Source: Planctomycetota bacterium (GTDB taxonomy: Bacteria; Planctomycetota; UBA1135; GCA-002686595). Taken from it: a stretch of DNA of 64,000 nt. Numbering within the stretch: the stretch's first letter is position 1; each line of letters opens with the position of its first letter. A model generated the notes under the pieces. That model did not search any database and was not told the DNA's origin. It saw only the letters and a program-made list of their open reading frames with translations. The stretch covers positions 75,375 to 139,374 of the forward strand of contig JAKLKU010000009.1 in the NCBI GenBank assembly GCA_023150475.1, given 5' to 3'. This document shows positions 6,737-28,300 of this stretch, one piece after another. Both the position numbers and the translations under genes were made by a program.

Positions 6737-7375
6737 GCGGACGAGCTTAGGACGGGGGTGCGACATGCGCCACGCTGGCCCGGGCCGACGAACTGCCCCG
6801 CCTCGTTGGGCACGAAATCGAGGAGCGGGTGCAACCGATCCGCCCAAACGGAGTCCTGGTCAGGTGGCCCCGCAGTGTCGACGCCGGATCGGGAGCGCAG
6901 GAAACCGGCGTCTCCAACGCCGCGGTCGACGCCCGCGAGGCACACGCGCCGGTGCGCGACGCGCGCTTTCGCAGCGCGCACCTTCCGCGTCGCCGCCATC
7001 GCGCGTGCCACGCGTCGGGCTGGGCGGCGCGCACGCGGAGCAAGGGCCCGGAACGGCCCGCGCGGGCGCCGGGCCCGTCCTGCGGGCCCAACCGACGAGG
7101 CCAGTGTCCGCGGCGCGTGGTCGCCGCGCGGGATGTCGGACTCGTCGGTTCGGACGGCGGCGCTTTTCTCGCTTCCTGGATCGCTGCGACGCGTGGTGAG
7201 GGGCTGGCAGGCCCGCCGCGCGTGCGCGAGCGGTTGACGGCTTCGGCAGGGCCGTCGTGGCGGTGCGACGTCTCAGGTCGCCGCGCGATCCAGTCGAAGT
7301 TCGGTCCGCCCGACCCTCGACCCTCGCGCTCGGCGCCACGCGCCGGGCGACGTGGGATCAGCCCAACGCACCACC

Positions 7376-9430
<2,055 letters not shown>

Positions 9431-9446
9431 GCGGCGGAGACGGCCC

Positions 9447-11884: not shown

Positions 11885-12024
11885 GAGACGCGCACTTCGG
11901 GATTCGGGCGCGCCGTCGCACGTTGGCGGGACTTGCTTGCACGACGTGTTCGCGCCGGGCGCTCGCCCCGCATGCTTGCCCCGCATGCTTGCACGAGACT
12001 CGCGAGCGGCGGAGACTGGCGCCC

Positions 12025-13200
12025 ATGATCCACGCTCCGCGCTCCGTTGCGTCGCTCGTTCCCGCGCTGTCGCTCGTCGTCCTTTCCGCGTGCCGCGACG
12101 GCGAGACGGAAACGACTCGCGCGATCGCGATCGTGCCGTCGCCACTCGCCGCCGCGGGCTGCACGGGCCCCGATCAGGTCTTCACGGCGCCGCAGACGCC
12201 GAGCCAGGTCGCACTTGCCGTGCTCGACATCGGTCCGACGTCGCAAGTCTGCGCGGCGGGGGACTCGGAGACGCTGTTTGCCACGGGCGATCAGGCGCAA
12301 GTCGTCGCGCTCGACGTTTCGGGCGGCGCCCCGGTCGAGACCGAGCTCGTCGCGGCCGGCACGATCGCAGCGTTGCTCAACACGCTCGGCGTGACGTCGC
12401 CGCCTGAGCTCGGTGGCATCGCAGTGCTCGACGCCGACACGTTGCTCGTGATCGAGATGACTTCGAACACGATCCTCTCGGTCGATCGCACGACGCCCGA
12501 CACGGTCGAGCTCTGGGCCGGTTTGCCGTCGGAGACACCGGGTTTCGCCGACGGGCCCGCGGTCACGGCGACCGCCGACTGTCCGCTGGGCTTCGCGCGT
12601 TTCGGATTCACGACGCCGACCGCGCTCTGCCCGACCGGCACGACCGGCGGAAGCGTGTACGTCGCCGATCCCGCGAATCACGCGTTGCGGCTCGTTTCCG
12701 GCGGCTGCGTGACGACGGTGTGCGGGCTCGGCGCGCCGCAGTCGCTCGACGGAACGCTCGGGATCGCGGGCTTCGACACGCCGGTCGGGATCTCGACCCG
12801 CTGCGCGGGTGCGTTGCTCGTCGTCGAAGCGGGCGGCAACAAGCTGCGCGAGCTCGGCTTCACGTCGGGGAGTTTCGGCGTGTCGGGCTCCGTGACGACG
12901 CTCGCGGGCGACGGGACCGAAGCGACGACGCAAGGCGACGGTGAAGCGGCACAACTCGCGGCGCCCGTGTCGGTGCTTTCGACGAGCGAAGGCGACGTGT
13001 ACTGGCTCGACTCCGCGACCGGCATCCTGCGGCGCATGTCGGGGGCGGCGGACTCGGTCGATTGCCCGCTCGCCGTCGATTGCGCGAGCGCGATCGCGGA
13101 CTTCACGCCAGGCGGAGTGCTCTCGCTCTCGCAGACTCCCGCCGGCGCGCTCTACGTGCTCGACGCCGACGCCGACACGCTCTTCCGCGTCACGCCCTGA
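12025..13200 (+). CDS. Lipoprotein with NHL-like beta-propeller repeats
   Basis: Lipobox 'LSLVVLSACRDG'. Repeated '...VYVADPANHALRLV...', 'LLVVEAGGNKLREL' and 'DVYWLDSATGILRRM' motifs resemble NHL repeats. Confidence 0.5.
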   Translation: MIHAPRSVASLVPALSLVVLSACRDGETETTRAIAIVPSPLAAAGCTGPDQVFTAPQTPSQVALAVLDIGPTSQVCAAGDSETLFATGDQAQVVALDVSGGAPVETELVAAGTIAALLNTLGVTSPPELGGIAVLDADTLLVIEMTSNTILSVDRTTPDTVELWAGLPSETPGFADGPAVTATADCPLGFARFGFTTPTALCPTGTTGGSVYVADPANHALRLVSGGCVTTVCGLGAPQSLDGTLGIAGFDTPVGISTRCAGALLVVEAGGNKLRELGFTSGSFGVSGSVTTLAGDGTEATTQGDGEAAQLAAPVSVLSTSEGDVYWLDSATGILRRMSGAADSVDCPLAVDCASAIADFTPGGVLSLSQTPAGALYVLDADADTLFRVTP

Positions 13201-13231
13201 GCCACGTGCAACGCACGCGGCGGCGCGCACT

Positions 13232-14995
13232 ATGGCGCGCGTGCTGGCGTCGCTCGGTCTCGCCGTCTTCGCGTGCGGATCTCCAGGACCGAGCTCCGGG
13301 CCGCGGTACGTCGATCCGACGACGTACGCATCGCCGAACGGCGAGCACGAGCTCCGCGTGGATCCGTCGAGGCACTTCGGTGCGGGCCCGGCGCGTTATC
13401 GCGCGAGCGTCGGCACTGCGGTCGTGTGGGAAGGCGAGCTCCCGTGGACGCTCTTCGACGCCGAAGTCGACGACGACGGTTGGACGATCGGCTGCGCGTA
13501 CACCCTCGGTGACACCAGCTTCCCCGAGCGTGGCAGCTTCGGCGACGTGCACCTGGTGGTGCTCGCACCCGACGGGTCGGTCATGGTCGACCTCGTCGAG
13601 CCCCGCATCGCGCTCAAGTACGTCGACAGCGGCCCCGAACCGAGCGTCGAACGCTTCGTGCTGGCTCGTGAGTTCGATCGGGCCGTTTTCGTGCTGTGTG
13701 GACACGCGGACCGCGACGTCGGTCGACGTTGGTGTTCCGCGCGGATCTCGGACGGTGCGAGATGGCCCGACGTCGACTTGCAGGCCGCGTTGAGGACCGA
13801 AGTGCGCGTGCAGCATCCACTCGGATTGCGTCGCTTGCCGGGAACGCCGTGGCTCCTCGCGCAGTACCACACGGGGCGGCCGTACGGCGGCTCGCTCACG
13901 GTGCTCGTCGATCTCGACGGGCACGAGCTCTGGTCGCGCTTCGACTCGGCCGAGTTCTCGACGGCGAAGGGACCCGTGGCGTTGCCGTGGCTCGACCGAC
14001 GGCAAGGTTCGCTGTCGATCACCGAGCCCGGACGCTTCTCGCTCGTGTCGTTCGTGCGGCGCGAGCGCGAGACCTTCGCCGTCGCACTCCGTCCGACGCT
14101 CGCTTCCGGGCCCACCGTCGAGAGCGTCGCGTGCGAGGAGTTCGACACGGAGGCCTTCGTGCTGCGTGCGGCGCAGCGACCGAGCGACGTCGAGCTTCCC
14201 GTCGCGCCGTTCGACTTGGAGCTCGTCGACGTGCAGGCGCTCGAGCTGCTTGGTCGACGTCAGACGGAGCTCGTCGGCAGCGACGGACACCAGCGGCTCT
14301 TCTTCGCCGAACGTCGCGGCATCGAAGTGCTCGAACTCGCGCTCGACGGCCAGTTCGTGCGCGCGTGGCGCGCAGCAGCGGACACGCGCCGCTTGGATTG
14401 GGCGAGTGTCGAGTTCGTTTCGGTGACCGCCGACGGAGGGCTGCTCGTGCAGACGCACTGGGACGAACGTCAACCCGCGTGGTCGTTCGCCGCCGACGGC
14501 GGCTTCGCGGGCGAGCGCGCGACCTGCGGCATCGAGTGTCCGCGTGCCGATGGCGCGAAGTGGGTCACCGGCCACTACGACGTGCGGCTCGAGGCGGCGG
14601 ACGGGACCGAGCGCGTGCGGCGCTCGAGGTCGGCGAGCGGTCGTTGGCTCGGGAACCAGTTCTTCGGCGCACGGTCGCTCGGGCCCGACGGCTCGCTCGC
14701 CGTGCAAGGTCGCGAGCTCGCGCTCTTCGGTGCCGACGGTGAGCCGCGCGCGGCCGGTGCGTGCCTCGGCTTCCCAGGTGCGACCATCGCCAACCGCGGC
14801 GATCGGGTCTTCGGATTCCGCGACGGCCGTGTGCTCGTCTTCGATGCCGCGACGGGTTCGACCTTCCAATGGGACGTCCGCCGGGACGTGCCGCCCGGCG
14901 CTCGGCTCGCGCCGGTGTGGATCGAAGCGCGAGGGGAGCTCTGGCTCGTCGACGCACCCGGTGGATACGCGCTGCGCTACCGCCCGAACGGCTGA
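13232..14995 (+). CDS. Hypothetical lipoprotein (no family recognised)
   Basis: Lipobox 'LGLAVFACGSP'. Non-shadow amino-acid composition over 587 aa. Same strand as, and 31 nt downstream of, the previous lipoprotein gene. Confidence 0.55.
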   Translation: MARVLASLGLAVFACGSPGPSSGPRYVDPTTYASPNGEHELRVDPSRHFGAGPARYRASVGTAVVWEGELPWTLFDAEVDDDGWTIGCAYTLGDTSFPERGSFGDVHLVVLAPDGSVMVDLVEPRIALKYVDSGPEPSVERFVLAREFDRAVFVLCGHADRDVGRRWCSARISDGARWPDVDLQAALRTEVRVQHPLGLRRLPGTPWLLAQYHTGRPYGGSLTVLVDLDGHELWSRFDSAEFSTAKGPVALPWLDRRQGSLSITEPGRFSLVSFVRRERETFAVALRPTLASGPTVESVACEEFDTEAFVLRAAQRPSDVELPVAPFDLELVDVQALELLGRRQTELVGSDGHQRLFFAERRGIEVLELALDGQFVRAWRAAADTRRLDWASVEFVSVTADGGLLVQTHWDERQPAWSFAADGGFAGERATCGIECPRADGAKWVTGHYDVRLEAADGTERVRRSRSASGRWLGNQFFGARSLGPDGSLAVQGRELALFGADGEPRAAGACLGFPGATIANRGDRVFGFRDGRVLVFDAATGSTFQWDVRRDVPPGARLAPVWIEARGELWLVDAPGGYALRYRPNG

Positions 14996-15389: not shown

Positions 15390-16922
15390 ATGAAGCTCGA
15401 GTCTCCGGGTCCGGCGCTCGGCCGACGCGTGGTGCGTCGCGGCCGAGAGCACTACTACCCGCACGTCACCGACGCCGAGTGGCACGACTGGCGTTGGCAG
15501 TTCCGCCACCGCGTCACGTCGCTCGCCGACCTCGCGCGCTTCCTCACGATCCCGCCGGAGGAGTGGAAGGCGCGCGAGCAGGTGCTCTCCGACTTCCGGA
15601 TGGGCATCACGCCGTACTACCTGTCGTTGATCGACGCGGACGATCCGCGCGATCCGCTGCTCCGGCAAGTCGTGCCGCTCGCCGAGGAGAACCTCTTCCG
15701 CGCAGTCGGCGACGAGGACCCGCTCGGCGAAGAGAAGTTCTCGCCGGTGCCCGGCATCACGCATCGTTATCCCGATCGCGTGCTGATGGTGCTGTCGAAC
15801 AACTGCGCGATCTACTGCCGCTACTGCACGCGCAAGCGGACGATGTACGACGGCGCGACGCCCGACGTCGAGATCGACCGCATGGTCGATTACATCGCGC
15901 GGACGCCGTCCGTGCGCGACGTCGTCGTGTCCGGCGGCGATCCGCTCAACTTCGCGACGGCGAAGCTCGACGCGATCCTGACGAAGCTGCGCGCGATCCC
16001 GCACCTCGAGATCATCCGCATCGGCACGCGCGTGCCGGTCGCGTTGCCGCAGCGCATCGACGACGAGCTCTGCGAGATGCTCGCGAAGCATCACCCGCTC
16101 TGGATCAACGTCCACTTCAACCATCCGAACGAGTTGACGCCCGACGCCGCGCGCGCGTGCGACAAGCTCTCGCGCGCCGGCGTCCCGCTGAACAACCAGG
16201 CCGTGCTGCTGAAAGGCGTCAACGACGACGTCGCGACGATCAAGGCGCTCTGCCACGGGCTGATGAGGATGCGCGTGCGGCCGTACTACCTCTATCAGTG
16301 CGATCCGGTGCGCGGCGCGGAACACTTCCGCACGCCGATCTCGAAAGGCATCGAGATCATCGAAGGCCTGCGCGGGCACACCAGCGGTCTCGCGGTGCCC
16401 ACCTACGTGATCGACGCGCCGGGCGGCGGCGGCAAGATCCCGGTGCAGCCCGACTACTTGCTCCAGTACGACCGCGAGCAAGGCCGAGCGCTGCTGCGCA
16501 ACTTCCAAGGCAAGCTCTACGAGTACTTGGAGCCGCGCGCGAACGAGGACGTGCTCGTGCCGGTCGCGCCGCCGATTCCGGCGAGCGCCCAGACGCCGCC
16601 GATCGTGCTCGCGGGCTCGAACCGCAAGCGCGCGGAGCCGGAGTCGAACGGCAAGGCGCAAAGCGCGAACGGCAACGGCCACGCGAGCTCGAGCCCCGGG
16701 GCTACGAACGGCGCCACGAACGGCGCGAGCAACGGCGCCACGAACGGCGCGAGCAACGGCGCTGCGAACGGCGCTGGCAACGGCGCCATGAATGGCGCGG
16801 GCAACGGCGCCGCGAGCTCGGCGAAGAACGGCTCGGCGCCGGTCGTCGGCAAGAGCAAGTGGGTGCACCGCGGCTCGACCAAGGCCGAGCGCGCGGCTCG
16901 CGCGAAGAAGCGCACGTCGTAG
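15390..16922 (+). CDS. kamA: L-lysine 2,3-aminomutase (radical SAM, KamA family) with ~100-aa low-complexity C-terminal extension
   Basis: 'HYYPHVTDAEWHDWRWQ' and 'ITPYYLSLID'. Radical-SAM 'NNCAIYCRYCTRKR'. 'PYYLYQCDPVRGAEHFR' and 'YVIDAPGGGGKIPV' contain the two Asp residues and the PLP Lys that are typical of lysine-specific enzymes. Start chosen at the ATG at 15390; the track ORF starts at 15285. Confidence 0.9.
   Translation: MKLESPGPALGRRVVRRGREHYYPHVTDAEWHDWRWQFRHRVTSLADLARFLTIPPEEWKAREQVLSDFRMGITPYYLSLIDADDPRDPLLRQVVPLAEENLFRAVGDEDPLGEEKFSPVPGITHRYPDRVLMVLSNNCAIYCRYCTRKRTMYDGATPDVEIDRMVDYIARTPSVRDVVVSGGDPLNFATAKLDAILTKLRAIPHLEIIRIGTRVPVALPQRIDDELCEMLAKHHPLWINVHFNHPNELTPDAARACDKLSRAGVPLNNQAVLLKGVNDDVATIKALCHGLMRMRVRPYYLYQCDPVRGAEHFRTPISKGIEIIEGLRGHTSGLAVPTYVIDAPGGGGKIPVQPDYLLQYDREQGRALLRNFQGKLYEYLEPRANEDVLVPVAPPIPASAQTPPIVLAGSNRKRAEPESNGKAQSANGNGHASSSPGATNGATNGASNGATNGASNGAANGAGNGAMNGAGNGAASSAKNGSAPVVGKSKWVHRGSTKAERAARAKKRTS
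16701..16808 (+). repeat. In-frame 12-bp tandem repeat x9 encoding (A-x-N-G)9 in the KamA tail
   Basis: Nine units read directly: gctacgaacggc / gccacgaacggc / gcgagcaacggc ... gcgggcaacggc. Confidence 0.9.
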
Positions 16923-16942
16923 GCGTCTCGCGGAGCGCGCGC

Positions 16943-17992
16943 ATGGAAATCGGGATCGCGTTCGATCTCAAGGCGGACTACGTGTCGGCTGCCGACGGCG
17001 CTCCGCCGATCGTCGGTGGCCACGCGGGCGGGCCCGGCGCACTCCCAGACGACCTCTACGAGGAGTTCGACTCGATCGCGACGGTCGAAGGCATCGAGCG
17101 TGCGCTCGCGCGTGGCGGGTACAAGACGCGACGGCTCGGCGGCGGCCGCCGCTTCCTCGAAAGCGTGCTCACGAAGCCCTGCGACCTCGTCTTCAACATC
17201 GCCGAAGGCTTCGGCACGCGCTCGCGCGAAGCGCACGTGCCGAGCGTGCTCGAGATGCTCCAGATCCCGTACACGCACAGCGATCCGCTGACGCTCGCGA
17301 CGACGCTCGACAAGGAAGTGGCGAAGCGGCTCGTCGCGTCGCACGGGCTCGCGACGCCGCGATTCGCCGTGATCGAGCGCGCGGACCGAGTGCGCGACGT
17401 CGAACGGCTCGCGCTCCAGTATCCGCTCTTCGCGAAGCCGCTCTTCGAAGGCTCGAGCATGGGCGTGCGCAAGAAGTCTCGCGTGCGCGACGCCGCCGAG
17501 CTCGCGGAACGCGTCGAGCGCCTGCTCGCGGACTACCGCGAGCCGGTGCTCGTCGAAGAATTCTGCTCGGGCCCGGAGTTCACCGTCGGACTCGTCGGCA
17601 ACGGCGCGAGCCTGCGCGTGCTCGGCGTGATGGAGATCGTCTCGAAGGCGGTGCCGCAAGCGGAGTTCGTCTACTCGCTCGAAGTGAAGCGCAACGACGA
17701 CTGGCACCTGGAAGTCGACTACCACGTGCCGCCGCGGCGCGCGCCGGAGCTCGTCGAGTGCGTCGCCGACCTCGCGCGCGGCGCGTTCCGTGCGCTCGGC
17801 TGCCGCGACCTCGCGCGCATCGACATCCGCCTCGACGGCGCGGGCTCTCCGAGGTTCCTCGAGTGCAATCCGTTGCCCGGACTCAAGCCCGGCTGGAGCG
17901 ACCTCGCGTTGCTCTGCGATCGTGCGGGCATCGAGTACGACACGCTGATCCTCGACGTCGTCCGCGCGGCGCGCGAGCGGTGGAGACTCTGA
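16943..17992 (+). CDS. ATP-grasp ligase, D-Ala-D-Ala-ligase-like (paralogue 1)
   Basis: 'CDLVFNIAEG', 'LDKEVAKRLVASHGLATPRF', 'YPLFAKPLFEGSSMGV', 'VLVEEFCSGPEFTVGLVG' and 'ARIDIRLDGAGSPRFLECNPLPGL'. The layout is Ddl-type. The gene starts 20 nt after the kamA stop. Confidence 0.8.
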   Translation: MEIGIAFDLKADYVSAADGAPPIVGGHAGGPGALPDDLYEEFDSIATVEGIERALARGGYKTRRLGGGRRFLESVLTKPCDLVFNIAEGFGTRSREAHVPSVLEMLQIPYTHSDPLTLATTLDKEVAKRLVASHGLATPRFAVIERADRVRDVERLALQYPLFAKPLFEGSSMGVRKKSRVRDAAELAERVERLLADYREPVLVEEFCSGPEFTVGLVGNGASLRVLGVMEIVSKAVPQAEFVYSLEVKRNDDWHLEVDYHVPPRRAPELVECVADLARGAFRALGCRDLARIDIRLDGAGSPRFLECNPLPGLKPGWSDLALLCDRAGIEYDTLILDVVRAARERWRL

Positions 17993-19008
17993 TGCGCGTC
18001 GCGGTGGTCTACAACCTCGACGATGCGCTGGCGGGCGGCACCGCGGAGGACGCGGTCGCGGTGCAAGCGGTGCAAGCGTGCGCGCGCAGCGTCGCCGACG
18101 CTCTGACGGCGCACGGCGCGACCGTCGCTCTCGTGCCGGTGCGGCCCGAGCCGAAACGGCTCTTGCGCCTCGTCGCCGAGCTCGACTGCGACCTCGTCTT
18201 CAACCTCGTCGAGTCCGTCGGCGGCGATCCACAGCTCGAGGCGGCGTTCGCGGGCACGCTCGAGCTCGCTGGGCTCGCGTACACCGGCTCGGGGCCCCGC
18301 ACGCTCGCGCTGTCGCTCGACAAACCGCTGACGCGCACGTTGCTCGCGGCCGCCGGCGTGCGCGTGCCGCGTGGCGCGGTGCTCGAAACGGGCGACGAAC
18401 CGCTCGCGCTCGACTACCCGGTGATCGTCAAGCCGGCGCGCGAGGACGCGAGCCACGGCATCGAGAGCGCGAGCGTCGTCGCGAGCGAAGCCGCGGCGCG
18501 CGAGCGTGCGCGGCTCGTGATCGAACGTTATCGGCAGCCCGCGTTGATCGAGGAGTTCGTCGACGGCCGCGAGTTCAACCTCGCGTTGCTCGGCGCAGGC
18601 GACGCCGCGGAGATCCTGTCGTTCGGCGAGATCGACTTCGCGTTGTTCCCCGCCGGCGTGCCGCGGATCGTCACGTACGCGAGCAAGTGGCTCGAAGGCA
18701 GCGAGGACTGGAACCGCACGCCGTCCGGCGGCGCGAAGGCGCTCACCGAGCCCGAACGCGTCGAGCTCGAACGTGCCGCGCGCGGCGCGTGGTGCGCGCT
18801 CGGCGGACGCGACTACGGGCGCGTCGACCTGCGGCTCGATCGTTCGGGGCGCGCGTTCGTGATCGACGTCAATCCCAACCCGGACCTCTCGGTGGACGCC
18901 GGCCTCGCGCTCGCGGCCCAAAGGAGCGGAATGAACCATGCCCGACTCGTCTGGCGCATCGCCGAGCTCGCGCTCGCGCGTCGTCTTGCGCGGTCTCGAG
19001 ACGCGTGA
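17992..19008 (+). CDS. ATP-grasp ligase, D-Ala-D-Ala-ligase-like (paralogue 2)
   Basis: ATGA overlap with the upstream gene (17990-17994). 'CDLVFNLVESVGG', 'LDKPLTRTLLAAAGVRVPRG', 'YPVIVKPAREDASHGI', 'ALIEEFVDGREFNLALLG' and 'GRVDLRLDRSGRAFVIDVNPNPDL'. Confidence 0.8.
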   Translation: MRVAVVYNLDDALAGGTAEDAVAVQAVQACARSVADALTAHGATVALVPVRPEPKRLLRLVAELDCDLVFNLVESVGGDPQLEAAFAGTLELAGLAYTGSGPRTLALSLDKPLTRTLLAAAGVRVPRGAVLETGDEPLALDYPVIVKPAREDASHGIESASVVASEAAARERARLVIERYRQPALIEEFVDGREFNLALLGAGDAAEILSFGEIDFALFPAGVPRIVTYASKWLEGSEDWNRTPSGGAKALTEPERVELERAARGAWCALGGRDYGRVDLRLDRSGRAFVIDVNPNPDLSVDAGLALAAQRSGMNHARLVWRIAELALARRLARSRDA

Positions 19009-19465
19009 CCGCACGCCGCTCGAACGCTTGCTCGTCGGCACGGATGCGTTCCGTCCGGACGAGATCCCGGTCGCGCTCGAGTTGATCGATCTCGGCCTCA
19101 CGCCGGGTGGCGGCGGGTATCGTTTCGTCGTCGCGGAGCTCGCGGACGACGTCCGAGGCGCGGCGGTCGTCGGTTACGCGTGTTTCGGCGCGACGCCGTG
19201 CACGCTCGGCACGTTCGACCTCTACTGGATCGCCGTCGACAAGGCGCGCCAAGGGCTCGGCATCGGCAAGCTCCTCGTGCGCGCCGTCGAGGACGCCGTG
19301 CGCGCGGACGGCGGGCGGCTCGTGCTGATCGAAACCGGCGGGAAACCTTCGTACGCGGCGCAACGCGCGTTCTACGCGTCCGCCGGCTATGTCGAAGTCG
19401 CGCGTGTGCCCGACTTCTACGAAGAAGGCGACGACCGCGTGATCTACCGGAAGAAGCTCCGATGA
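18938..19465 (+). CDS. GNAT family N-acetyltransferase
   Basis: Acetyl-CoA motif region 'IAVDKARQGLGIGKLLVRAVEDAVRADGGRLVLIET' and 'AQRAFYASAGY'. The start is uncertain: the ATG at 18938 overlaps the upstream gene by 71 nt, and an in-frame TTG at 18986 is an alternative. Confidence 0.7.
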   Translation: MPDSSGASPSSRSRVVLRGLETRDRTPLERLLVGTDAFRPDEIPVALELIDLGLTPGGGGYRFVVAELADDVRGAAVVGYACFGATPCTLGTFDLYWIAVDKARQGLGIGKLLVRAVEDAVRADGGRLVLIETGGKPSYAAQRAFYASAGYVEVARVPDFYEEGDDRVIYRKKLR

Positions 19466-20019
19466 AGCCGCAACGTGCGAAGCAGCGTCCCGGTCCGCCG
19501 GACGTCGAGAACCTCGCGAGTGCGACGTTCGATTGTGTGTTCCCGACCTGCGGCGGCGTGTGCTGCAAGAACGGCCGGCCGTCGGTCGAGCTCGACGAGC
19601 AGCGACGCATCGAACGCGCGCTCGCGAAGTTCCTGCCGCACCTCACCGAGAAAGCCCGCGCGCGGATCGAACGCGACGGTTTCGTGACCGCGCGGCGCAA
19701 GGAAGGCCTGCCGATGCTCGCCGTCGTCGATGGTTGGTGCGTGTTCGCGAACGAAGGTTGCGTGCTGCACAAGGTCGGCGCCGCGGAAGGCGATCGCTTC
19801 CGGTACAAGCCCTGGCGTTGCGCGGTGTTCCCGCTCGAACGCGACCGGCGCACGAAACGCTGGCACGTGCGTCAGTGGGGCGTCAAAGGCGAGGCGTGGG
19901 ACCTCTTCTGCCTGAACCCGCGCGAGTCACGCAAGTCCGCGGCGAAGACGCTGTCCGGCGAACTCGAGCACGCGGCAACGGTCGATCGTCGGCTCGCGGA
20001 CGACGGCCGAACGCGCTGA
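19462..20019 (+). CDS. Cysteine-cluster protein (YkgJ/DUF3109-like putative Zn/Fe-binding domain)
   Basis: ATGA overlap with the GNAT stop (19462-19465). Cys motifs 'FDCVFPTCGGVCCKNG', 'DGWCVFANEGCVLH' and 'KPWRCAVFPL'. Confidence 0.6.
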   Translation: MKPQRAKQRPGPPDVENLASATFDCVFPTCGGVCCKNGRPSVELDEQRRIERALAKFLPHLTEKARARIERDGFVTARRKEGLPMLAVVDGWCVFANEGCVLHKVGAAEGDRFRYKPWRCAVFPLERDRRTKRWHVRQWGVKGEAWDLFCLNPRESRKSAAKTLSGELEHAATVDRRLADDGRTR

Positions 20020-20135
20020 CACGCAGCGCGGCTCATTCTCGGCGCAGTCGGGGCGCGCACGGGACGCACGTTGCGCAGCGGGTGCCGCCGGCTACGATCC
20101 GGCGGCCGATTCCCGCCCCAAACGAGGAGGAGCTC

Positions 20136-22172
20136 TTGGGTCACGCCCCTGCACCCGCACCCACGCCGGCACCGACGGCCGAGCACAAGCCGTTCGTCGC
20201 GCCCGAGCAGAACCTGCCGGAGTTCACGCCGAAGGCCGTGATCTTCGGCGCGATCTTCGGAATCCTCTTCGGCGCCGCGACCGTGTACCTCGCGCTGAAG
20301 GCGGGGTTGACCGTTTCGGCGTCGATCCCGATCGCTGTGCTGTCGATCTCGGTGCTGCGCGCCTTCGGGCGGCCGACGATCCTCGAGAACAACATCGTGC
20401 AGACGATCGGCTCCGCCGGTGAGTCGGTGGCGGCCGGCGTCGCTTTCACGATCCCGGCGTTGCTCTTCCTGTCGCCGGGCGCGAACGGCGAGGCGTTCTT
20501 CGAGTACGCGCAGATCATGACGCTCGCCGCGGTCGGCGGGATCCTCGGCGTGCTGTTCATGGTGCCGTTGCGTCGCTCGTTGATCGTCGGCGAGCACGGC
20601 ACGTTGCCCTACCCGGAAGGCACGGCGTGCGCCGAAGTGCTCGTCGCCGGCGAGAAGGGCGGCAACATGGCGAAGCTCGTCTTCCAGGGCGTCGGCATCG
20701 GGGCCGTCTACAACGTGCTCATGAAGTGCTTCGCGTTCTGGAAGGAAGCACCTGCGTACGTCAGTGCGAAGACGGCGACTCTGCCCAACGCGACCGTCGC
20801 CGGCGAGCCGACGGCCGAGTACCTCGGCGTCGGCTACATCCTCGGGCCGCGCGTCGGCGGGATCATGGTCTCGGGCGCGATCCTGTCGTGGATCGTGTTG
20901 ATCCCGTTGCTCTCGCTGCTCGTGCCCGAATCCGAGCTCAACGCCGCGCTGGCCGCTCTGGGCCGCAGCGACGAGTGGATCGCCTCGACCGGCGGCCCGC
21001 GCAAGGTGTACGAAGCGTACGTGCGGTACATCGGCGCGGGCGCCGTGACGATGGCCGGCATCATCACGCTCGTGAAGACTTCGCCGACGATCGTGCGCGC
21101 GATCCGCGAGTCGGCGTCCGCGATGACGAAGAGCAAGTCGGGCGCCGGAACCGTGAAACGCACCGACCGCGACATCCCGATCTGGGTGGTGGGGGCCGGC
21201 GCCGTGCTGTTGGTCGGTGTGCTCGTCGCGCTGCCGCTCTTGCCGGGTGGTTTCACCGGCAAGCTCGCGATGGCCGTGTTGATGATCGTCTTCGGCTTCC
21301 TCTTCGTGACCGTGAGCTCGCGGATCGTCGGCATCATCGGTTCGTCGTCGAACCCGATCTCCGGGATGACGATCGCCACGCTGCTCGGCACCGCGCTCGT
21401 GTTCCTCGCGCTCGGTCTCGGCGGCGAAGCGAACCAACCCGTCGCGTTGTGCGTCGGCGCGATCGTGTGCATCGCCGCGGCGAACGCCGGAGCGACCAGC
21501 CAAGACCTGAAGACCGGCTTCCTGGTCGGCGCCACGCCGATCCGCCAGCAGATCGGCCTCGTCGTCGGCGTGCTCGCTTCGGTGCTCGCGATCGGGTTCA
21601 CGATCAAGATGCTCGACACCAGCATGGCGCCGGAGGGCATGGCTCACGGCATCGGCTCGGAGAAGCTGCCTGCGCCGCAAGCGACCCTGATGGCGACCGT
21701 CATCAAGGGCGTTCTCGCGCAGAACCTGCCGTGGGGTTACATCCTGGTCGGCGCGGGGCTCGCGGTCGCGGTGTTCCTGCTCGGCGTCTCGCCGCTCGCC
21801 TGGGCGGTCGGCGCGTATCTGCCGTTCCAGACGTCGTTCACGATCTTCCTCGGCGGCCTGCTGCGCGGCGCCATCGACAAGAAGCGCGGAGCCGCTGCGG
21901 AAAGCGATGTCAGTCCGGGCATGTTGTACGCGACCGGCTTGGTCGCGGGCGGCGCACTGACCGGCGTCGTCGTCGGCGCGCTCTATGGCGTCGACATCGT
22001 CGACGAAGGCAAGGAGAAGTCCTTGATCGCGTACTTGTCGGGCCCCGGCGAGCGCTTCCAGCACTGGCTCTCGCAGTACGGCACGTACACGCCCGACCTC
22101 GTGTCGACCGGCATGTTCTGCGTGCTCGGATACCTGCTCTACCGTGCGGCGATGAAGAAGAGCGAAGCGTGA
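20136..22172 (+). CDS. OPT family oligopeptide transporter (paralogue 1)
   Basis: TTG start preceded by GAGGAGGAG (20124-20132). 'EFTPKAVIFGAIFGILFGAATVYLALKAGLTVSASIPIAVLS', 'NIVQTIGSAGESVAAG', 'ISGMTIATLL' and 'SQDLKTGFLVGATP'. Many TM segments. Confidence 0.85.
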   Translation: MGHAPAPAPTPAPTAEHKPFVAPEQNLPEFTPKAVIFGAIFGILFGAATVYLALKAGLTVSASIPIAVLSISVLRAFGRPTILENNIVQTIGSAGESVAAGVAFTIPALLFLSPGANGEAFFEYAQIMTLAAVGGILGVLFMVPLRRSLIVGEHGTLPYPEGTACAEVLVAGEKGGNMAKLVFQGVGIGAVYNVLMKCFAFWKEAPAYVSAKTATLPNATVAGEPTAEYLGVGYILGPRVGGIMVSGAILSWIVLIPLLSLLVPESELNAALAALGRSDEWIASTGGPRKVYEAYVRYIGAGAVTMAGIITLVKTSPTIVRAIRESASAMTKSKSGAGTVKRTDRDIPIWVVGAGAVLLVGVLVALPLLPGGFTGKLAMAVLMIVFGFLFVTVSSRIVGIIGSSSNPISGMTIATLLGTALVFLALGLGGEANQPVALCVGAIVCIAAANAGATSQDLKTGFLVGATPIRQQIGLVVGVLASVLAIGFTIKMLDTSMAPEGMAHGIGSEKLPAPQATLMATVIKGVLAQNLPWGYILVGAGLAVAVFLLGVSPLAWAVGAYLPFQTSFTIFLGGLLRGAIDKKRGAAAESDVSPGMLYATGLVAGGALTGVVVGALYGVDIVDEGKEKSLIAYLSGPGERFQHWLSQYGTYTPDLVSTGMFCVLGYLLYRAAMKKSEA

Positions 22173-22185
22173 GCGCGCGCCGCTC

Positions 22186-24354
22186 GTGAGCGAGACGGCT
22201 TCGAGCTTCCAACCCGCAGTGCCGGCGCACGAGAGTGCGCCGGAGTTGACGCTTCGCGCCGTCGCGCTCGGAGCGTTGCTCGGCATCGTGTTCGGCGCGG
22301 CGTCGACGTACCTCGCGTTGCGCGTCGGGCTCACGACGAGCGCGTCGGTGCCGATCGCGGTGCTCGCGATCTGGGCGATCAAGAAACGCCGCGACCAACG
22401 CGCGATCCTCGAGCACAACATCGTGCAGACCACGGGCTCGGCCGGCGAGTCGGTCGCGTCCGCGGTCGTGTTCACGGTGCCGGCGTTGATCTTCCTCGGC
22501 TTCCCGCTCCAGGTCGGGCTGACGACGTTGATCGCGGCGACCGGCGGGATGCTCGGCGTCTTGATGATGGTGCCGCTGCGGCGCTACTTGATCGTCAAGG
22601 AGCACGGCAAGCTCCGTTACCCGGAAGGCAAGGCTTGCGCGGAGATCCTGCAGGCGGGCGAGAAGGGCGGCACGTCGGCTTCGAAGGTCTTCTACGGGCT
22701 CGGCATCGGCGTCGCGTTCAAGGCGGTCCAAGCGATCTTCAACGGCGTCAAAGCGTCGATCTCGGTGCCGCTCGCCGGCTTCAAGGGAGCGGTCGTCGGT
22801 TGCGACGTCGCGCCGGAGCTCCTCGGCGTCGGCTACATCATCGGCTACCGCACGTCGGTGATCATGGTCGCGGGCAGTCTGCTCGCGTCGTTCATCCTGA
22901 TCCCGTTGATCCTGTGGATCGGCGCGGCGTCGGACGTGATCGTCGCGCCGGGCGCGGTGCCGATCCGCGACATGACCCCCGACGACGTGTGGGACGCGTA
23001 CGTGCGGCACATCGGCGCGGGCGCGGTCGCGGCGGGCGGCATCTTCGCGCTCTTGCGCGCGTTGCCGGCGATCGTCTCGTCGCTCTCGGCGTCGGCGAAG
23101 TCGCTCTTCGGCGGCGGTGGCGCGGGTTCCGTGCTGCGCACCGAGCGCGACACGCCGCTCCCGGTGCTCGTGCTCGGCGCGCTCGCGATCGTCGGGTTCG
23201 TGTGGCTCGTGCCGACGTTCGAGATGAACTTGATGGGAGCCGCGCTGATCCTGGTGCTCGGTTTCCTCTTCGCCGTGGTGAGCTCGCGGATCACCGGCGA
23301 AGTCGGTTCGTCGTCGTGCCCGTTGTCGGGCATGACGATCGGCGTGCTGATGGCGACGTGCGGGCTCTTCCTCCTGCGCGGCTTCGAAGGCGCGGAGTAC
23401 AGCCGGCTCGCGCTGATGATCGGCGCCGTGATCTGCATCGCGATCTCGAACGCCGGCACCTGCTCGCAGGACCTGAAGACCGGCTTCCTCGTCGGCGCGA
23501 CGCCGGTGAAGCAGCAGGGCGCGCTGCTGGTCGGCGTGCTCACCAGCGTGCTCGCCGTCGGTTGGACCGCGTACGCGTTGAACCTCTCCGAGACGACGGA
23601 AGAGCCGCTCGCGCAGCCGTTCCCCGTCGCGTCCGCGCTCTGGCAGGACGCCGAGAGCATCACGAGCATCACGGCGAGCGACCCGACCGAGTACCGCTTC
23701 GTGCGACTGACGGCGAGCGACGTGCCGACCGGAGTGCCCGAAGGCATCTACCTCGTCGATCCGACGAGCGGCGAAGCCGAGATCCGCCGGCTCGACGGCA
23801 TCGGCGCGGGCAAGCTGCGCGCGCCGCAGGCGAAGCTGATGTCGGTGGTGATCGACGGGCTCCTGACGCACAAGCTGCCGTGGGACCTGATCCTGCTCGG
23901 CGTCGCGATCGCGGTGTTCGTCGAGCTCCTCGGCTTCAACGCGCTGACGTTCGCGGTCGGCGTGTACTTGCCGCTCGCGGGCACGTTGCCGGTCTTCCTC
24001 GGCGGCCTTGCGCGCAAGCTCGCGGATCGGCGTTACCGGCGACCCGCCGACGCCGAGGACGAGCCCGAAGGCACGCTCTTCTCCAGCGGCCTGATCGCCG
24101 GCGCGTCGATCCTCGGCATCGTCGCGGCGTTGCTCACGTTCGTGCCCGGCTACGACCGCGACCACGGGTGGTTGCCGGCGCTCGCGATCCCCGAGTTCTT
24201 CGCGTCGACCGACGCGGCGGGTGAGAAGGTCTTTCCGGAGTTCTTCTCGAGCGACCTCGCCGCCGCGTGCCTGCTCGGCCTGCTCGTCTTCCTGATCGTC
24301 CGCGCGGCGGCCGGATCCGGTGCGGGCGCGAAGCCGGGAGACGGTCCCGGCTAG
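22186..24354 (+). CDS. OPT family oligopeptide transporter (paralogue 2, with enlarged loop)
   Basis: Same conserved blocks as paralogue 1: 'ELTLRAVALGALLGIVFGAASTYLALRVGLTTSASVPIAVLA', 'NIVQTTGSAGESVASA', 'LSGMTIGVLM' and 'SQDLKTGFLVGATP'. Starts 13 nt after paralogue 1. Confidence 0.85.
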   Translation: MSETASSFQPAVPAHESAPELTLRAVALGALLGIVFGAASTYLALRVGLTTSASVPIAVLAIWAIKKRRDQRAILEHNIVQTTGSAGESVASAVVFTVPALIFLGFPLQVGLTTLIAATGGMLGVLMMVPLRRYLIVKEHGKLRYPEGKACAEILQAGEKGGTSASKVFYGLGIGVAFKAVQAIFNGVKASISVPLAGFKGAVVGCDVAPELLGVGYIIGYRTSVIMVAGSLLASFILIPLILWIGAASDVIVAPGAVPIRDMTPDDVWDAYVRHIGAGAVAAGGIFALLRALPAIVSSLSASAKSLFGGGGAGSVLRTERDTPLPVLVLGALAIVGFVWLVPTFEMNLMGAALILVLGFLFAVVSSRITGEVGSSSCPLSGMTIGVLMATCGLFLLRGFEGAEYSRLALMIGAVICIAISNAGTCSQDLKTGFLVGATPVKQQGALLVGVLTSVLAVGWTAYALNLSETTEEPLAQPFPVASALWQDAESITSITASDPTEYRFVRLTASDVPTGVPEGIYLVDPTSGEAEIRRLDGIGAGKLRAPQAKLMSVVIDGLLTHKLPWDLILLGVAIAVFVELLGFNALTFAVGVYLPLAGTLPVFLGGLARKLADRRYRRPADAEDEPEGTLFSSGLIAGASILGIVAALLTFVPGYDRDHGWLPALAIPEFFASTDAAGEKVFPEFFSSDLAAACLLGLLVFLIVRAAAGSGAGAKPGDGPG

Positions 24355-24393: not shown

Positions 24394-25335
24394 ATGTCCG
24401 CGCCGCGCCTTTCGATCCTCCTGCCGACCTACAACGGCGCCGACGATCTCGAGCGGCTCCTGCCGGCGCTCGCGGCGCAGAAGGTCGACGGCGGCTTCGA
24501 GATCTGCGCGATCGATTCGAGCTCGACCGACCGCACGCGCGAGTTGCTCGCCGCCGCCGGCGCGTCGATCGAAGTGATCCAGAAGAGCGAGTTCCGCCAC
24601 GGCGCCACGCGCAACCGTTGCGCATTGCGTGCGCGCGGCGAGCTGCTCGTCTTCCTGTCGCAGGACGTCGTCCCCGAAGGCACGCGCTTCCTCGCCGAAC
24701 TCGCGAACGCGTTCGCCGATCCGCGCACCGCGGGGGCGTACGGTCGGGTGCTGCCGTTCGAAAGCGACGATCCGCTGACCGCGCGCACCGTGCTCGACCT
24801 CCCCGAGGCCGAAGAACGCGAGCTCGTCCGCGACCTCGACCACGTCGGCGGCCTCCACGAGCTCTCCGGCACCGAGCGCGCCGAGTTCGTGCGCTTCAAC
24901 AACGTCGCGAGCGCGATCCGCGCGGACGTGTTCCGCAAGCTGCCGTTCCCCGACATCGCGTTCGGCGAGGACTTCGCGTGGGCGGCGCGCGCGTTGACCG
25001 CCGGCTGGCGCATCCGCTTCGTGCCGAAGGCGATCGCGCGCCACGCGCACCACTATTCACCGGCGAAGGCGTACGAGCGTTATCGCGTCGACGCGGCGTT
25101 CCACCGGCTCGTGCACGGCCACCGGCTGCGGCCGACGCTCGCGTCGGTCGCGCGCGGGTTCGCCTACGAAGTCGCGGCGGACGCGCGTTATCTCGCGCGC
25201 ACCGAGCGCCGCGGCAAGTGGAGCGGTTTCCTGCGCTCGCCGATCCTGCGCGGCGCTCAGGTGCTCGGTCAGTGGGTGGGCAGTCACGGCTACGCCGGCG
25301 GGCCGCGCGGCGAAGCGACCGGCCGCATGCGTTGA
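24394..25335 (+). CDS. Family 2 glycosyltransferase (rhamnosyltransferase-like)
   Basis: 'RLSILLPTYNGADDLERLLPAL', 'IDSSSTDRT', 'HGATRNRC', 'LLVFLSQDVVP' and 'FGEDFAWA'. Paralogous to the GT2 modules of the next gene. Confidence 0.8.
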   Translation: MSAPRLSILLPTYNGADDLERLLPALAAQKVDGGFEICAIDSSSTDRTRELLAAAGASIEVIQKSEFRHGATRNRCALRARGELLVFLSQDVVPEGTRFLAELANAFADPRTAGAYGRVLPFESDDPLTARTVLDLPEAEERELVRDLDHVGGLHELSGTERAEFVRFNNVASAIRADVFRKLPFPDIAFGEDFAWAARALTAGWRIRFVPKAIARHAHHYSPAKAYERYRVDAAFHRLVHGHRLRPTLASVARGFAYEVAADARYLARTERRGKWSGFLRSPILRGAQVLGQWVGSHGYAGGPRGEATGRMR

Positions 25336-25399
25336 GGCGAGGCCCGAATCGCCCCGTCGAGCTTCCTCCTCCGAGCCACCGTCCCGCGTTGTCGCAGCG

Positions 25400-28300
25400 A
25401 TGTCCCGCGTCCAATCGATCTCGATCCACTTGCCGACGTTGAACGGCGAGGCGTTCCTCGAGCGCGTGCTCGCCGCGCTCGCCGCGCAACGTTGCGACGT
25501 GCCGTGGGACCTCTTCGTCGTCGACTCGGGCTCGACCGACCGCACGCTCGCGATCCTCGAGGACTTCCGCGCGCGTTTCCCGGTGCCGTTCTCGATCGAG
25601 CGCATCCACGCACTCGAGTTCGACCACGGAGACACTCGCAACCGACTCGCTTCGCGTTCGCAGGGCGAGCTCCTGGTCTTCCTTACGCAGGACGCGATCC
25701 CGAGTTCGCCCGACTGGCTCGCACGCCTCGCGCGCAACTTCGAGGATCCGCGGGTCGCCGCGGCGTACTGCCGCAACGTGCCGCGGCCGGACGCGGAGCG
25801 ATTGACGCGCATTCTGAGCGCCGCCGATCCGGGCTATGCGAGCGAACGCCGCGAAGTGCGCTTGCCGCCCGCCGAAGAGTACGCGCGGCTGGATCCGCAC
25901 GCGAAGCGGCTGCTGTACAACTTCAACGACGTCGCGTCGGCGCTGCGGCGGTCCGTGTGGGAGCTCTGTCCGTTCGCGCGCACCGAGTTCGGCGAGGACC
26001 TGCTGCTCGCCCGAGCGCTGCTCGAAGCCGGACACACGCTCGTCTACGACGCGGAAGCGACCGTCGAGCACAGCCACGACTACGGTCCGGTCGAGCTCGG
26101 CCGCCGAGCGGAGATCGACGCGCGCTTCAACGCCGAATGGCTCGACCGGATCTGCGTCGCGAGCGAGAAGGACGCGCGCACGTTGACCGACCGGTTCGTC
26201 GCGAGCGATCGTGAAGCGCTCGCCGCGTCGGGCCTCTCCGGGACGGAGCTCGAGCAGGAAGTCGAACGCGCGCGGCGCTTGCGCACGGCGCTCTTCGACG
26301 GGCTCTGGCGCGGCGGCGCGTCGCGCGTGCGCCGGCCGAAGCCGCGGATGCTGGAGCGCAAGGACCTCTCGGTGCTGTTCGTCGTCCACGGCTTCCCGCC
26401 GGAGACGTGGGCCGGCACCGAGGTGTACACGCTGACGCTCGCCAAGGAGCTCGCTCGCCGCGGCCAGAAAGTCGCGGTGCTCGCGCGCAGCGCGCCGAAA
26501 CTCTCGCCGTCGGAAGGCGGGCCCGCGGACTTCGCGCTGTCGCGCGAGACGTTCGAGGGGCTGACCGTCTGGCGTCTCGCGCATCGGCTCGACCACCAGA
26601 GCCTGCGCGACACGTACGCGCATCCGGAAGTCGAGCTCGGCTTCGAGCGCGTGCTCGCCGAGCAACGACCGGACGTCGTCCACTTCCAACACCTCTTGCA
26701 CTTGTCGGCGGGTTTGATCGGCCTCGCGCAACGCCACGGCGCCGCGAGCGTGCTGACGCTCAACGACTACTGGGGTCTCTGCGCGCGTGTGCAGCTCGTG
26801 CGCCCCGACGGCGTGCGCTGCGAGGAACCGCAGGGCCTCGGTTGCCTCGTGTGCGTCAAGAACAAGGACTACTCGAGCATCGAACGCGCGAAGGAGCTCT
26901 ATCCGCTCGCGAAGCCGCTGGTGAAGCTCGCCGAATTCGCGCTCGCCGTGCCGAAACTCCCGAGCGTCAAGCTCGAACGGATCCTGCACAAGCGCCGTGT
27001 GAAGCTCGGGCGGTGGGCGCGCGCGTACCGCGACGTGCAGGCGCGGCCCGACGTCGTGCTCGGTGCGATGGCGAGCGCGGACCTCGTGATCGGTCCGAGC
27101 CGGTTCCTGCGCGAGAAGTACTTGGCGAGCGGCCGTTTCGACTCACGGCGCTTCTTGTACTCGGACTACGGGATGGTCACCGACCATCTGCACGCGCTCG
27201 AGAAGACGCACGACCCGCAGGGTGCCGTCCGCTTCGGCTACGTGGGCTCGCTCGTCTGGTACAAGGGCGTCGACGTGCTCGTGCGCGCGATCGCGAGCCT
27301 GCCCGAGAGCGCGAACGCGAAGCTCGCGATCTTCGGCGCGTTCGACCCTGCGCGCGATCCGTACCACGCGGAGCTCGCGGACCTCGCCGCCCGAGCGGCG
27401 CCGGGACGCGTCGTGTTCCGCGGCCGCTTCGAGAACGCGAAGCTCGCGGAGGTCTATCGCGAGATCGACGTGCTCGTCGTCCCGTCGGTGTGGTTCGAGA
27501 ATTCGCCGCTGACGATCCACGAAGCGTTCCTGCTCTCGACCCCGGTCGTGACGAGCGACATCGGCGGCATGAAGGAGCTCGTGCGCGACGGCGTCGACGG
27601 TCTGCACTTCAAGGTCGGCGACGCCGCCGATCTCGCGACGAAGCTCGCGCGTTTCGTCGCCGAGCCCGATCTCGTCGCGCGGCTCTCACGCGACTTCCCG
27701 CGCATCAAGACGATCGCGGAGGACGCGATGGACATGGAATGGCGCTATCGCGGACTCGTCGCGTTGCGCCCGCCGAACGTGAGGCCGCAGGCGGCCGCCG
27801 GGGCGGCGACGACGACGCCCGCCGTGCTCCGCGGCAACGGCGTGCACGGTTCCGCCGGGCCCTCCGAGCGCGTAAGCTCTCCCGCCCCTTCCGCGATGCG
27901 ACCGCTCCGCTCGATCTCGGTGTTGATGCCGACGTGGCAAGGGGAAGAGTTCCTCGAGCGCGTGCTCGCGGCCCTTGCCGGCCAGCGCTGCAAGTTCGCG
28001 TGGGACTTCCTCGCGATCGACTCGGGCTCGACCGACCGCACGCTCGCGATCCTCGCAGCGTGGCGGGAGCGTTTCCCGGTGCCGCTGCGCATCGAAGCGA
28101 TCCACAAGTGCGAGTTCGACCACGGCGACACGCGCAACTTGCTCGCGTCGCGCTGCGACGGCGACTTGCTCGTCTTCCTGACGCAGGACGCGATCCCGAG
28201 CTCTCCAGAGTGGCTCGAAACGCTCGCCGCGAACTTCGCGGACGAGCACGTCGGCGCGGCCTACTGCCGCAACGTGCCGCGGCCGGACGCGGAGCTCCTG

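Follow-up and report, generated by a model that had tools for sequence, protein, structure and literature searches.

The recognized fates of beta-lysine are use as an osmolyte, modification of EF-P, fermentation, and incorporation into nonribosomal peptide synthetase (NRPS) antibiotics. Here we describe a gene cassette that may add to these, found in a 64,000-nucleotide (nt) stretch of a Planctomycetota bacterium genome (contig JAKLKU010000009.1, positions 75,375 to 139,374; the whole of this stretch is called the window below). Five genes at window positions 15390-20019 encode a KamA-type aminomutase, two Ddl-fold ATP-grasp ligases that we call AG1 and AG2, a small GNAT N-acetyltransferase and a DUF3109/Rv0495c-family protein, and are followed by two OPT-family transporter genes that end at 24354. 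We propose that the 15390-20019 genes are a conserved cassette for the biosynthesis of an amide metabolite derived from beta-lysine, a reading to which we assign a probability of roughly 0.6.

The closest described systems each resemble part of this arrangement. AblA/AblB (also B. subtilis yodP-kamA) is alike in pairing a long-form KamA/AblA-type aminomutase with a GNAT; the differences are that the KamA described here scores under the AblA cut-off and has no zinc site, that its GNAT is not AblB-like, and that one or two ATP-grasp partners are constant. EpmB/EpmA is alike in following KamA-family beta-lysine formation with an ATP-dependent ligation, but EpmB is a short form without the LAM_C domain and the EpmA ligase is a LysRS paralogue rather than an ATP-grasp enzyme. 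Synthesis of N-acetylglutaminylglutamine amide (NAGGN) by Ngg and AsnO, which we liken to the cassette by logic alone, would share the combination of an ATP-grasp peptide bond with GNAT acetylation; Ngg is itself a bifunctional GNAT and ATP-grasp enzyme, and a fusion of AG2 to GNAT exists here too, whereas the cassette would use beta-lysine as building block, has Ddl-type rather than RimK-type ligases, and has no amidotransferase conserved nearby. Ddl and VanA have the three-domain ATP-grasp fold and the ATP, Mg and catalytic residues in common with AG1 and AG2, and differ from them in the substrate-site triad (E-S-R in AG1, A/D-A-W in AG2), in the Ddl cut-offs that AG1 and AG2 do not reach, and in gene context, which here includes no cell-wall genes. 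Carnosine synthase, BacD/YwfE, RizA and TabS perform ATP-dependent, non-ribosomal and non-NRPS ligation of unusual amino acids, often with a transporter gene near; such L-amino-acid ligases have only a distant sequence relation to AG1 and AG2, and none is coupled to an aminomutase. Judged by these analogies, the cassette resembles the AblAB and NAGGN osmolyte pathways in logic and is probably a member of neither. A preliminary description of the window, made from the letters alone, knew of no described system of such composition, and we likewise found no description of the cassette in a full-text literature search, whose coverage did not extend to the Iyer/Aravind 2009 amidoligase survey. The cassette suggests a so far undescribed route to an amide compound derived from beta-lysine.

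An AG1-alignment scan over one genome per GTDB species gave at least 535 relatives, of which the best 80 loci were fetched (these and further loci carry the prefix L below) and searched for the window proteins by tblastn, with counts made over 64 loci after a distant Myxococcaceae type was left out. kamA lay directly upstream of AG1 on the same strand in 52 of the 58 evaluable loci, and AG2 downstream of AG1 in 46 of 56, while 38 of 51 had a GNAT gene and 24 of 47 a DUF3109 gene, the latter mostly in Planctomycetota and Polyangiales. The reverse look-up agreed, as all five KamA homologues with fetched contigs had AG1 immediately downstream. These loci came from Planctomycetota, Myxococcota (Polyangiales), Krumholzibacteriia, Clostridia, WOR-3, Acidobacteriota, Omnitrophota and Hydrothermae, and also from one archaeon-labelled metagenome-assembled genome (MAG) and the cultured Singulisphaera acidiphila. 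All-against-all clustering of open reading frames (ORFs) within 10 kb of 84 loci returned only the core genes as common across phyla. The neighbourhood of kamA, two ATP-grasp genes and a GNAT gene on which the preliminary description had built is conserved across several phyla, where dozens of genomes counted at species level have it, and is further linked by the fusion proteins described below. kamA-AG1-AG2-GNAT-DUF3109 is a conserved unit and not a chance arrangement, and AG1 is the invariable partner of this KamA sub-family.

The content of the unit varies between lineages: Gemmata and Omnitrophota have kamA-AG1 only, Singulisphaera and WOR-3 have kamA-AG1-AG2, and four loci (L013, L014, L019 and L051) have kamA-AG1-GNAT-DUF3109 without AG2. 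Since there are lineages that do without AG2, without GNAT or without DUF3109, we view all three as tailoring steps around a KamA-AG1 core. An extra, conserved ORF of 356-404 amino acids stands between kamA and AG1 in WOR-3 and Hydrothermae (L045:8787-9998 and L050:8783-9850); it has no Pfam or NCBIfam match, and may be an additional pathway enzyme.

Fusion proteins join the same components covalently. A search of 1.84 billion representatives with AG1 gave 812 clusters (50% identity) at E ≤ 1e-30, and the best 150 were typed as 108 single ligases, 38 double ATP-grasp proteins and four fusions of KamA to AG1. The KamA-AG1 fusions (Radical_SAM + LAM_C + Dala_Dala_lig_C; P0429, P0472, P0505 and P0463) are four independent 50%-identity clusters. 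Where such fusions were seen at loci, AG2 and then GNAT followed downstream (L090), or an MFS gene stood between the fusion and AG2 (L092:8001-12666). AG2 is fused to GNAT in a Limnoglobus MAG (L070), and in the metagenomic protein P0449 a CxxCxxCC metal-binding domain related to DUF3109 is fused to an AG1-type ligase. In Singulisphaera acidiphila DSM 18658 the gene directly after kamA-AG1-AG2 (L068:12330-14087) encodes a GNAT joined to a histone-deacetylase-type amidohydrolase (PF00850, 253 bits), which suggests that N-acetylation of the product is reversible. From these fusions we conclude that KamA, both ligases, the acetyltransferase and the Cys-rich domain are one functional unit.

The 38 double ATP-grasp proteins among those 150 recall the two ligase sites of cyanophycin synthetase, and could be taken to mean that two ATP-grasp sites make a polymer, either poly-beta-lysine or a nitrogen-rich, cyanophycin-like polyamide, that acetylation caps or regulates. 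AG2 also matches the ATP-grasp region of cyanophycin synthetase weakly, at 31-35 bits, and an S58/DmpA-type aminopeptidase adjoins the paired ligases of Myxococcaceae. Those cyanophycin matches, however, are far under the cut-off (about 850 bits) and involve the generic ATP-binding part only; the kamA-linked cassette has no conserved association with a primer-binding domain, a Mur-ligase-like domain or a dedicated depolymerase; and Ddl-fold enzymes form dipeptides. Polymer synthesis is on this evidence very unlikely.

The two ligases are central to the reading of the cassette as a route to a small amide. AG1 (16943-17992, + strand; Dala_Dala_lig_C, 110.5 bits) and AG2 (17992-19008, + strand; Dala_Dala_lig_C, 72.8 bits) are 36% identical to each other, and both are 22-32% identical to Ddl, or about 25-32% to the Ddl references in our alignments. 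Their sequence relatives in the PDB are Ddl and VanA only, plus one far weaker L-amino-acid ligase (3VOT, the best such match, E 6.5e-06), and the nearest PDB folds that Foldseek returned for the AlphaFold model of AG1 (predicted local distance difference test score, pLDDT, 89; predicted template modelling score, pTM, 0.89) are likewise Ddl, with template modelling (TM) scores of 0.66-0.86 at 19-25% identity. None of the NCBIfam models is specific to AG1, AG2, GNAT or DUF3109. On the Ddl subfamily model NF002378, with its cut-off of 243 bits, AG1 scores 156.2 and AG2 117.7, and all Ddl equivalog models score both proteins lower than that.

We compared 66 sequences of AG1 type and 46 of AG2 type residue by residue with E. 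coli DdlB. K97, K144, E180, K215, R255, D257, E/D270 and N272 are invariant in all of them, and E187 is invariant in AG1 and present in 45 of the 46 AG2 sequences, the other having D. With the ATP, Mg and catalytic residues so kept (but for the one E187D), both AG1 and AG2 are probably active ligases. The changes are in the substrate sites. The E15-S150-Y216 triad of Ddl reads E-S-R in AG1, with the R invariant, and A/D-A-W in AG2, with the W invariant, neither reading being one of the VanA/Lac variants; D replaces G276 in 44 of the 46 AG2 sequences, and the Ddl carboxylate-site positions 281 and 282 (S281/L282) are changed in both ligases. AG1 further differs from DdlB by R16E, V18D, H63E and E68R, and the extra acidic residues that this places at the first-substrate site (E16, D18 and E63, by E15, which is kept) would suit a diamino acid as acyl donor, for instance beta-lysine.

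Public annotation takes a different view of these proteins: an NCBI protein record whose sequence matches AG1 at 100% identity bears the title 'MAG: D-alanine--D-alanine ligase [Planctomycetes bacterium]', and Ddl is indeed the closest characterised family, so that AG1 and AG2 might be cell-wall D-Ala-D-Ala ligases that stand by chance beside an aminomutase of lysine-fermentation or EF-P type. The scores far below the cut-offs and the changed triad, which is replaced in every family member, show that they are not such ligases, which agrees with the preliminary description. No mur or fts genes are nearby and no lysine-fermentation genes are present; the arrangement is kept across phyla and extends to fusion with KamA, which is itself not EpmB. 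Contradicted by scores, triad, context, conservation and fusions alike, chance adjacency of a cell-wall Ddl is scarcely credible, and we rejected it.

The aminomutase gene kamA (15390-16922, + strand) encodes Radical_SAM and LAM_C domains by Pfam, and is in the presence of LAM_C unlike the short-form EpmB. The protein matches the C. subterminale lysine 2,3-aminomutase 2A5H at 464 bits over residues 5-368 with short gaps only. Its top NCBIfam model is AblA (TIGR03820), at 495.5 bits against a cut-off of 525.4, and it also falls under the cut-offs of the models for glutamate 2,3-aminomutase (TIGR04368; 444.6 bits, cut-off 650), arginine 2,3-aminomutase (397.9 bits, cut-off 600) and EpmB (TIGR03821; 274 bits, cut-off 369.3). 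As controls, a truncated 2A5H sequence scored 624.5 bits on the AblA model and E. coli EpmB 534 bits on the EpmB model. AblA was the top model for ligase-linked KamAs from three phyla, at 451-495 bits (494 for a Clostridia MAG and 451 for Singulisphaera).

Asp293 and Asp330 of lysine 2,3-aminomutase bind the epsilon-amino group of lysine. We mapped the window KamA and 57 homologues adjoining AG1-type ligases in 2A5H numbering. The window protein carries C125/C129/C132, R134, D293 (in YQCD), D330 and K337 (in DAPGGGGK); D293, D330 and K337 are kept in all 57 homologues, and the Fe-S cysteines and R134 in 56, the remaining one being gapped. The CxxxCxxC cluster, the PGGGGK lysine and both Asp positions had been picked out in the preliminary description, and all stand in the 2A5H alignment and the residue map. 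For glutamate 2,3-aminomutase, Ruzicka and Frey reportedly describe Lys at position 293 and Asn at 330, and E. coli EpmB has D at 293 and E at 330. With both Asp kept, and with 274 bits against 369 on the EpmB model and 445 against 650 on the glutamate aminomutase model, the window KamA is by sequence neither an EpmB nor a glutamate aminomutase, which agrees with its earlier assignment; nor is there an efp or epmA gene in the window neighbourhood. Ligase-linked KamA is most likely, on its residues, still a lysine (or at least a basic amino acid) 2,3-aminomutase. It departs from the canonical enzyme elsewhere: the zinc-site Cys268 is replaced by D, S, N or T in 56 of the 57 ligase-linked KamAs, and the C-terminal CxCxxC was not found in their tails, that of the window protein having no Cys at all. 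Without the structural zinc site these enzymes probably have a different quaternary arrangement, and their scores and residues would set them apart as a distinct sub-family beside canonical KamA/AblA.

The tails of ligase-linked KamAs are variable and rich in NG. That of the window KamA (16536-16919) begins as a Cys-free, NG-rich, low-complexity linker that looks disordered and is not conserved, encoded in part by a 12/24-nt tandem repeat at 16707-16815. After this linker comes a conserved motif, VVGKSKWVHRG (16842-16874). In the form GKSxWxHxG it was found in 82 of the 120 closest KamA homologues, at a median of 24 amino acids from the C-terminus; the tails of the Planctomycetota clade end in the motif, and none of the three KamA-AG1 fusion proteins that we looked at has it. 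The motif may be a docking peptide for AG1.

The GNAT gene (18986-19465, + strand, with an alternative start at ATG 18938; Acetyltransf_7/1) encodes a protein whose one PDB relative, at 115 bits, is 2R7H, a structural-genomics entry from Desulfovibrio G20 called 'putative D-alanine N-acetyltransferase'. Its best NCBIfam match, RimI, is weak (39 bits, cut-off 86), and the AblB model of NCBIfam gave no match even at E ≤ 1; by sequence, then, the GNAT is not AblB-like. This bears on the simplest account of the locus, a plain AblA/AblB-type route in which KamA and GNAT make N-epsilon-acetyl-beta-lysine and the ATP-grasps are unrelated in function. Such an account fits AblA as top model of KamA, the usual presence of GNAT (38 of 51 loci), and the known use of kamA and GNAT pairs for N-epsilon-acetyl-beta-lysine in methanogens; for Pelobacter such a pair has been proposed, in a paper that describes ablAB only (PMC3543383). 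AG1 and not GNAT, however, is the constant neighbour and fusion partner of KamA, and several lineages have kamA-AG1(-AG2) with no GNAT; the GNAT, besides lacking an AblB match, is fused to AG2 in L070; and the KamAs remain under the AblA cut-off, against 624 bits for the C. subterminale enzyme. We regard the plain AblA/AblB-type route as quite unlikely.

The last gene of the conserved unit (19462-20019, + strand) encodes the DUF3109 protein, of the family called Rv0495c in Pfam (PF11307, 48.4 bits, cut-off 33.5). Eight cysteines (C25, C30, C34, C35, C93, C100, C120 and C150) are invariant across 30 homologues. An AlphaFold 2 model of moderate confidence (pLDDT 74) gave no PDB fold match, and a PDB sequence search gave only a marginal ferredoxin match (E 0.5). 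Only one functional report on the family was found, a preprint that links M. tuberculosis Rv0495c to redox homeostasis; the family is one without known biochemistry (bioRxiv 10.1101/2023.08.22.554105).

Downstream of DUF3109 lie OPT1 (20136-22172, + strand; PF03169, 300 bits) and OPT2 (22186-24354, + strand; PF03169, 261 bits), paralogues with 48% identity over about 490 amino acids, which both exceed the TIGR00733 cut-off of 182.5 bits (368 and 318 bits). The preliminary description had taken them for dedicated transport of the product. OPT genes occurred in only three of 39 evaluable loci, all within the clade of the window (L001/L006, L005 and L015), and in L023 and L024, where flanking synteny is kept on both sides, DUF3109 runs directly into the GT2 gene with no OPT between. 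Elsewhere, transporters beside or inside the cassette are of the unrelated APC, MFS and EamA families (such as an APC amino-acid permease gene 120 nt upstream of kamA, L094:5571-10988), and many loci have none. This distribution does not support OPT as dedicated transport of the product, and we discounted it as a conserved part of the cassette. The pair is an insertion, a local and clade-specific add-on that is probably not part of the conserved unit and would be at most an optional accessory for uptake or export. Some transport link for the cassette, though not a conserved one, is plausible.

In the window itself, ORF listing and junction reads confirmed that the seven genes from kamA to OPT2 are tightly packed on one strand. 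Intergenic gaps are 20 nt between kamA and AG1, 116 nt between DUF3109 and OPT1 (start TTG 20136, with GAGGAGGAG before the start) and 13 nt between OPT1 and OPT2, all as first reported, as was the ATGA overlap at 19462-19465 that joins the GNAT and DUF3109 genes and makes them translationally coupled; the ATGA overlap claimed at 17990-17994 proved instead to be TGATG, a stop/start overlap of 1 nt between AG1 and AG2. The TTG start of GNAT at 18986, which a public gene caller picked on an identical contig, gives 159 amino acids and a 23-nt overlap with AG2, and the alternative ATG at 18938 a 71-nt overlap. A promoter scan of the window returned no promoters, and terminators were at shuffle level; with these scans uninformative, the case for co-transcription of the genes is one of spacing. 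An Rfam search of the window gave no riboswitch and no other RNA, and PADLOC matched no defence system.

Upstream, the window has genes for an M28 peptidase (5762-6649, - strand), prkA (7376-9418), DUF444 (9456-10550), spoVR (10556-11881), an NHL-repeat protein (12091-13197) and an unassigned protein of about 584 amino acids (13241-14989); synteny of this 5762-14989 set is common to L001, L005 and L006. G+C, about 70% for the window, is about 0.65 at 8001-12000 (the prkA/DUF444/spoVR region) against about 0.70 elsewhere. In a separate block of Myxococcaceae and Anaeromyxobacter (L062-L084, for example L075:7000-12000), hemB, an RDD-family membrane protein gene and two tandem AG1-like ligase genes stand with a gene for an S58/DmpA-type aminopeptidase; the ligases are more distant AG1 relatives, and kamA is absent within 10 kb.

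Downstream of the OPT pair, at 24394-30685, come a GT2 gene and then a gene for a 1761-residue GT2-GT4-GT1 protein, in which the GT2-GT4-GT1 module is duplicated internally. Such neighbours raise another role for the ATP-grasps, namely, attachment of beta-lysine or acetyl-beta-lysine to a macromolecule: a protein carboxylate, a cell-wall precursor or a uronic acid of a surface glycan. RimK and LysX (protein), D-aspartate ligase (cell wall) and the Campylobacter capsule amidoligases (glycan) are precedents, so that ATP-grasp amidoligases of both proteins and glycans are known. The glycosyltransferase genes follow the cassette in the clade of the window, a Polysacc_synt flippase gene follows DUF3109 in L009, and the conserved C-terminal peptide of KamA on its flexible tail might also be cited for this role. 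Against it, the glycosyltransferase neighbours are confined to that one clade, the ORFs within 10 kb include no conserved candidate for an acceptor protein or for a carrier like LysW, and the closest fold and sequence relatives of the ligases are the dipeptide-forming Ddl rather than RimK or LysX. We consider macromolecule modification unlikely.

The conservation, the fusions and the residue patterns are direct observations, and from them a pathway to a beta-lysine-derived amide can be proposed. KamA, a radical SAM and pyridoxal phosphate (PLP) enzyme, would first turn L-lysine into beta-lysine, as we infer from the complete conservation of its catalytic and lysine-binding residues. AG1 would receive beta-lysine straight from KamA and make an amide bond via an acyl-phosphate, and AG2, which is often fused to an AG1-type domain, would make a second amide bond. 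GNAT would then acetylate a free amine, either of beta-lysine or of the ligation product. The DUF3109 protein, in its Planctomycetota-type versions, might be an accessory metal or redox protein and may support the Fe-S enzyme, a role that we put forward purely by conjecture. The expected product is most likely a small, N-acetylated amide that resembles a di- or tripeptide of beta-lysine. As to its role, our first guess would be a cytoplasmic compatible solute; it might also be an exported metabolite.

Several points weigh against this reading. AG1-AG2-GNAT(-DUF3109) occurs with no adjacent kamA in Sandaracinus amylolyticus (L085) and in Polyangiales L016, L034 and L053, with DUF3109 included in the former and in a Polyangiales MAG, and no alternative feeder enzyme recurred in these kamA-less loci. 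In the Myxococcaceae paired-ligase sub-family, kamA is nearby in none of 15 loci; therefore the ligase family is not strictly tied to beta-lysine. D293 with D330 is also compatible with some other basic substrate, EpmB having D293 and E330. Some of the fusions are known from gene calls on metagenomes, and an artefact of assembly or a frameshift is in principle conceivable for these. The osmolyte guess is weakened by the habitats of the hosts, which are groundwater, lakes, soil, sludge and hot springs and not notably saline. Finally, the substrates, the order of the steps, the partner amino acid or acids, the amine that is acetylated, the product and its role are all matters that we infer.

A more specific version of the proposal can be offered tentatively, at somewhat less than even odds. 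Here the cassette would make oligoamides of a new class, built on beta-lysine and capped by N-acetylation, which would be widespread among uncultivated bacteria of at least eight phyla. For their synthesis the aminomutase would pass its product straight on to a Ddl-type ligase that has been repurposed. This transfer would rely on covalent fusion in some lineages, and in others on the conserved C-terminal peptide GKSxWxHxG, which would dock from the end of a disordered, NG-rich tether; the oligoamide could serve as a compatible solute, a nitrogen-rich reserve or a metal or cation ligand.

Two cultured carriers, Singulisphaera acidiphila DSM 18658 (kamA-AG1-AG2) and Sandaracinus amylolyticus (the ligase-GNAT-DUF3109 part), make the proposed pathway directly testable. 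If it is right, ligation by ATP-grasp enzymes would be a fifth fate of beta-lysine and its product a new metabolite class, and the cassette would exemplify physical coupling between a radical SAM enzyme and an ATP-grasp ligase. It would also provide the first genomic context for the DUF3109/Rv0495c family. For the AG1 family, with its 812 clusters, it would give a function to hundreds of genes now annotated 'D-alanine--D-alanine ligase', and so correct a systematic mis-annotation that is able to mislead surveys of cell-wall synthesis and vancomycin resistance.

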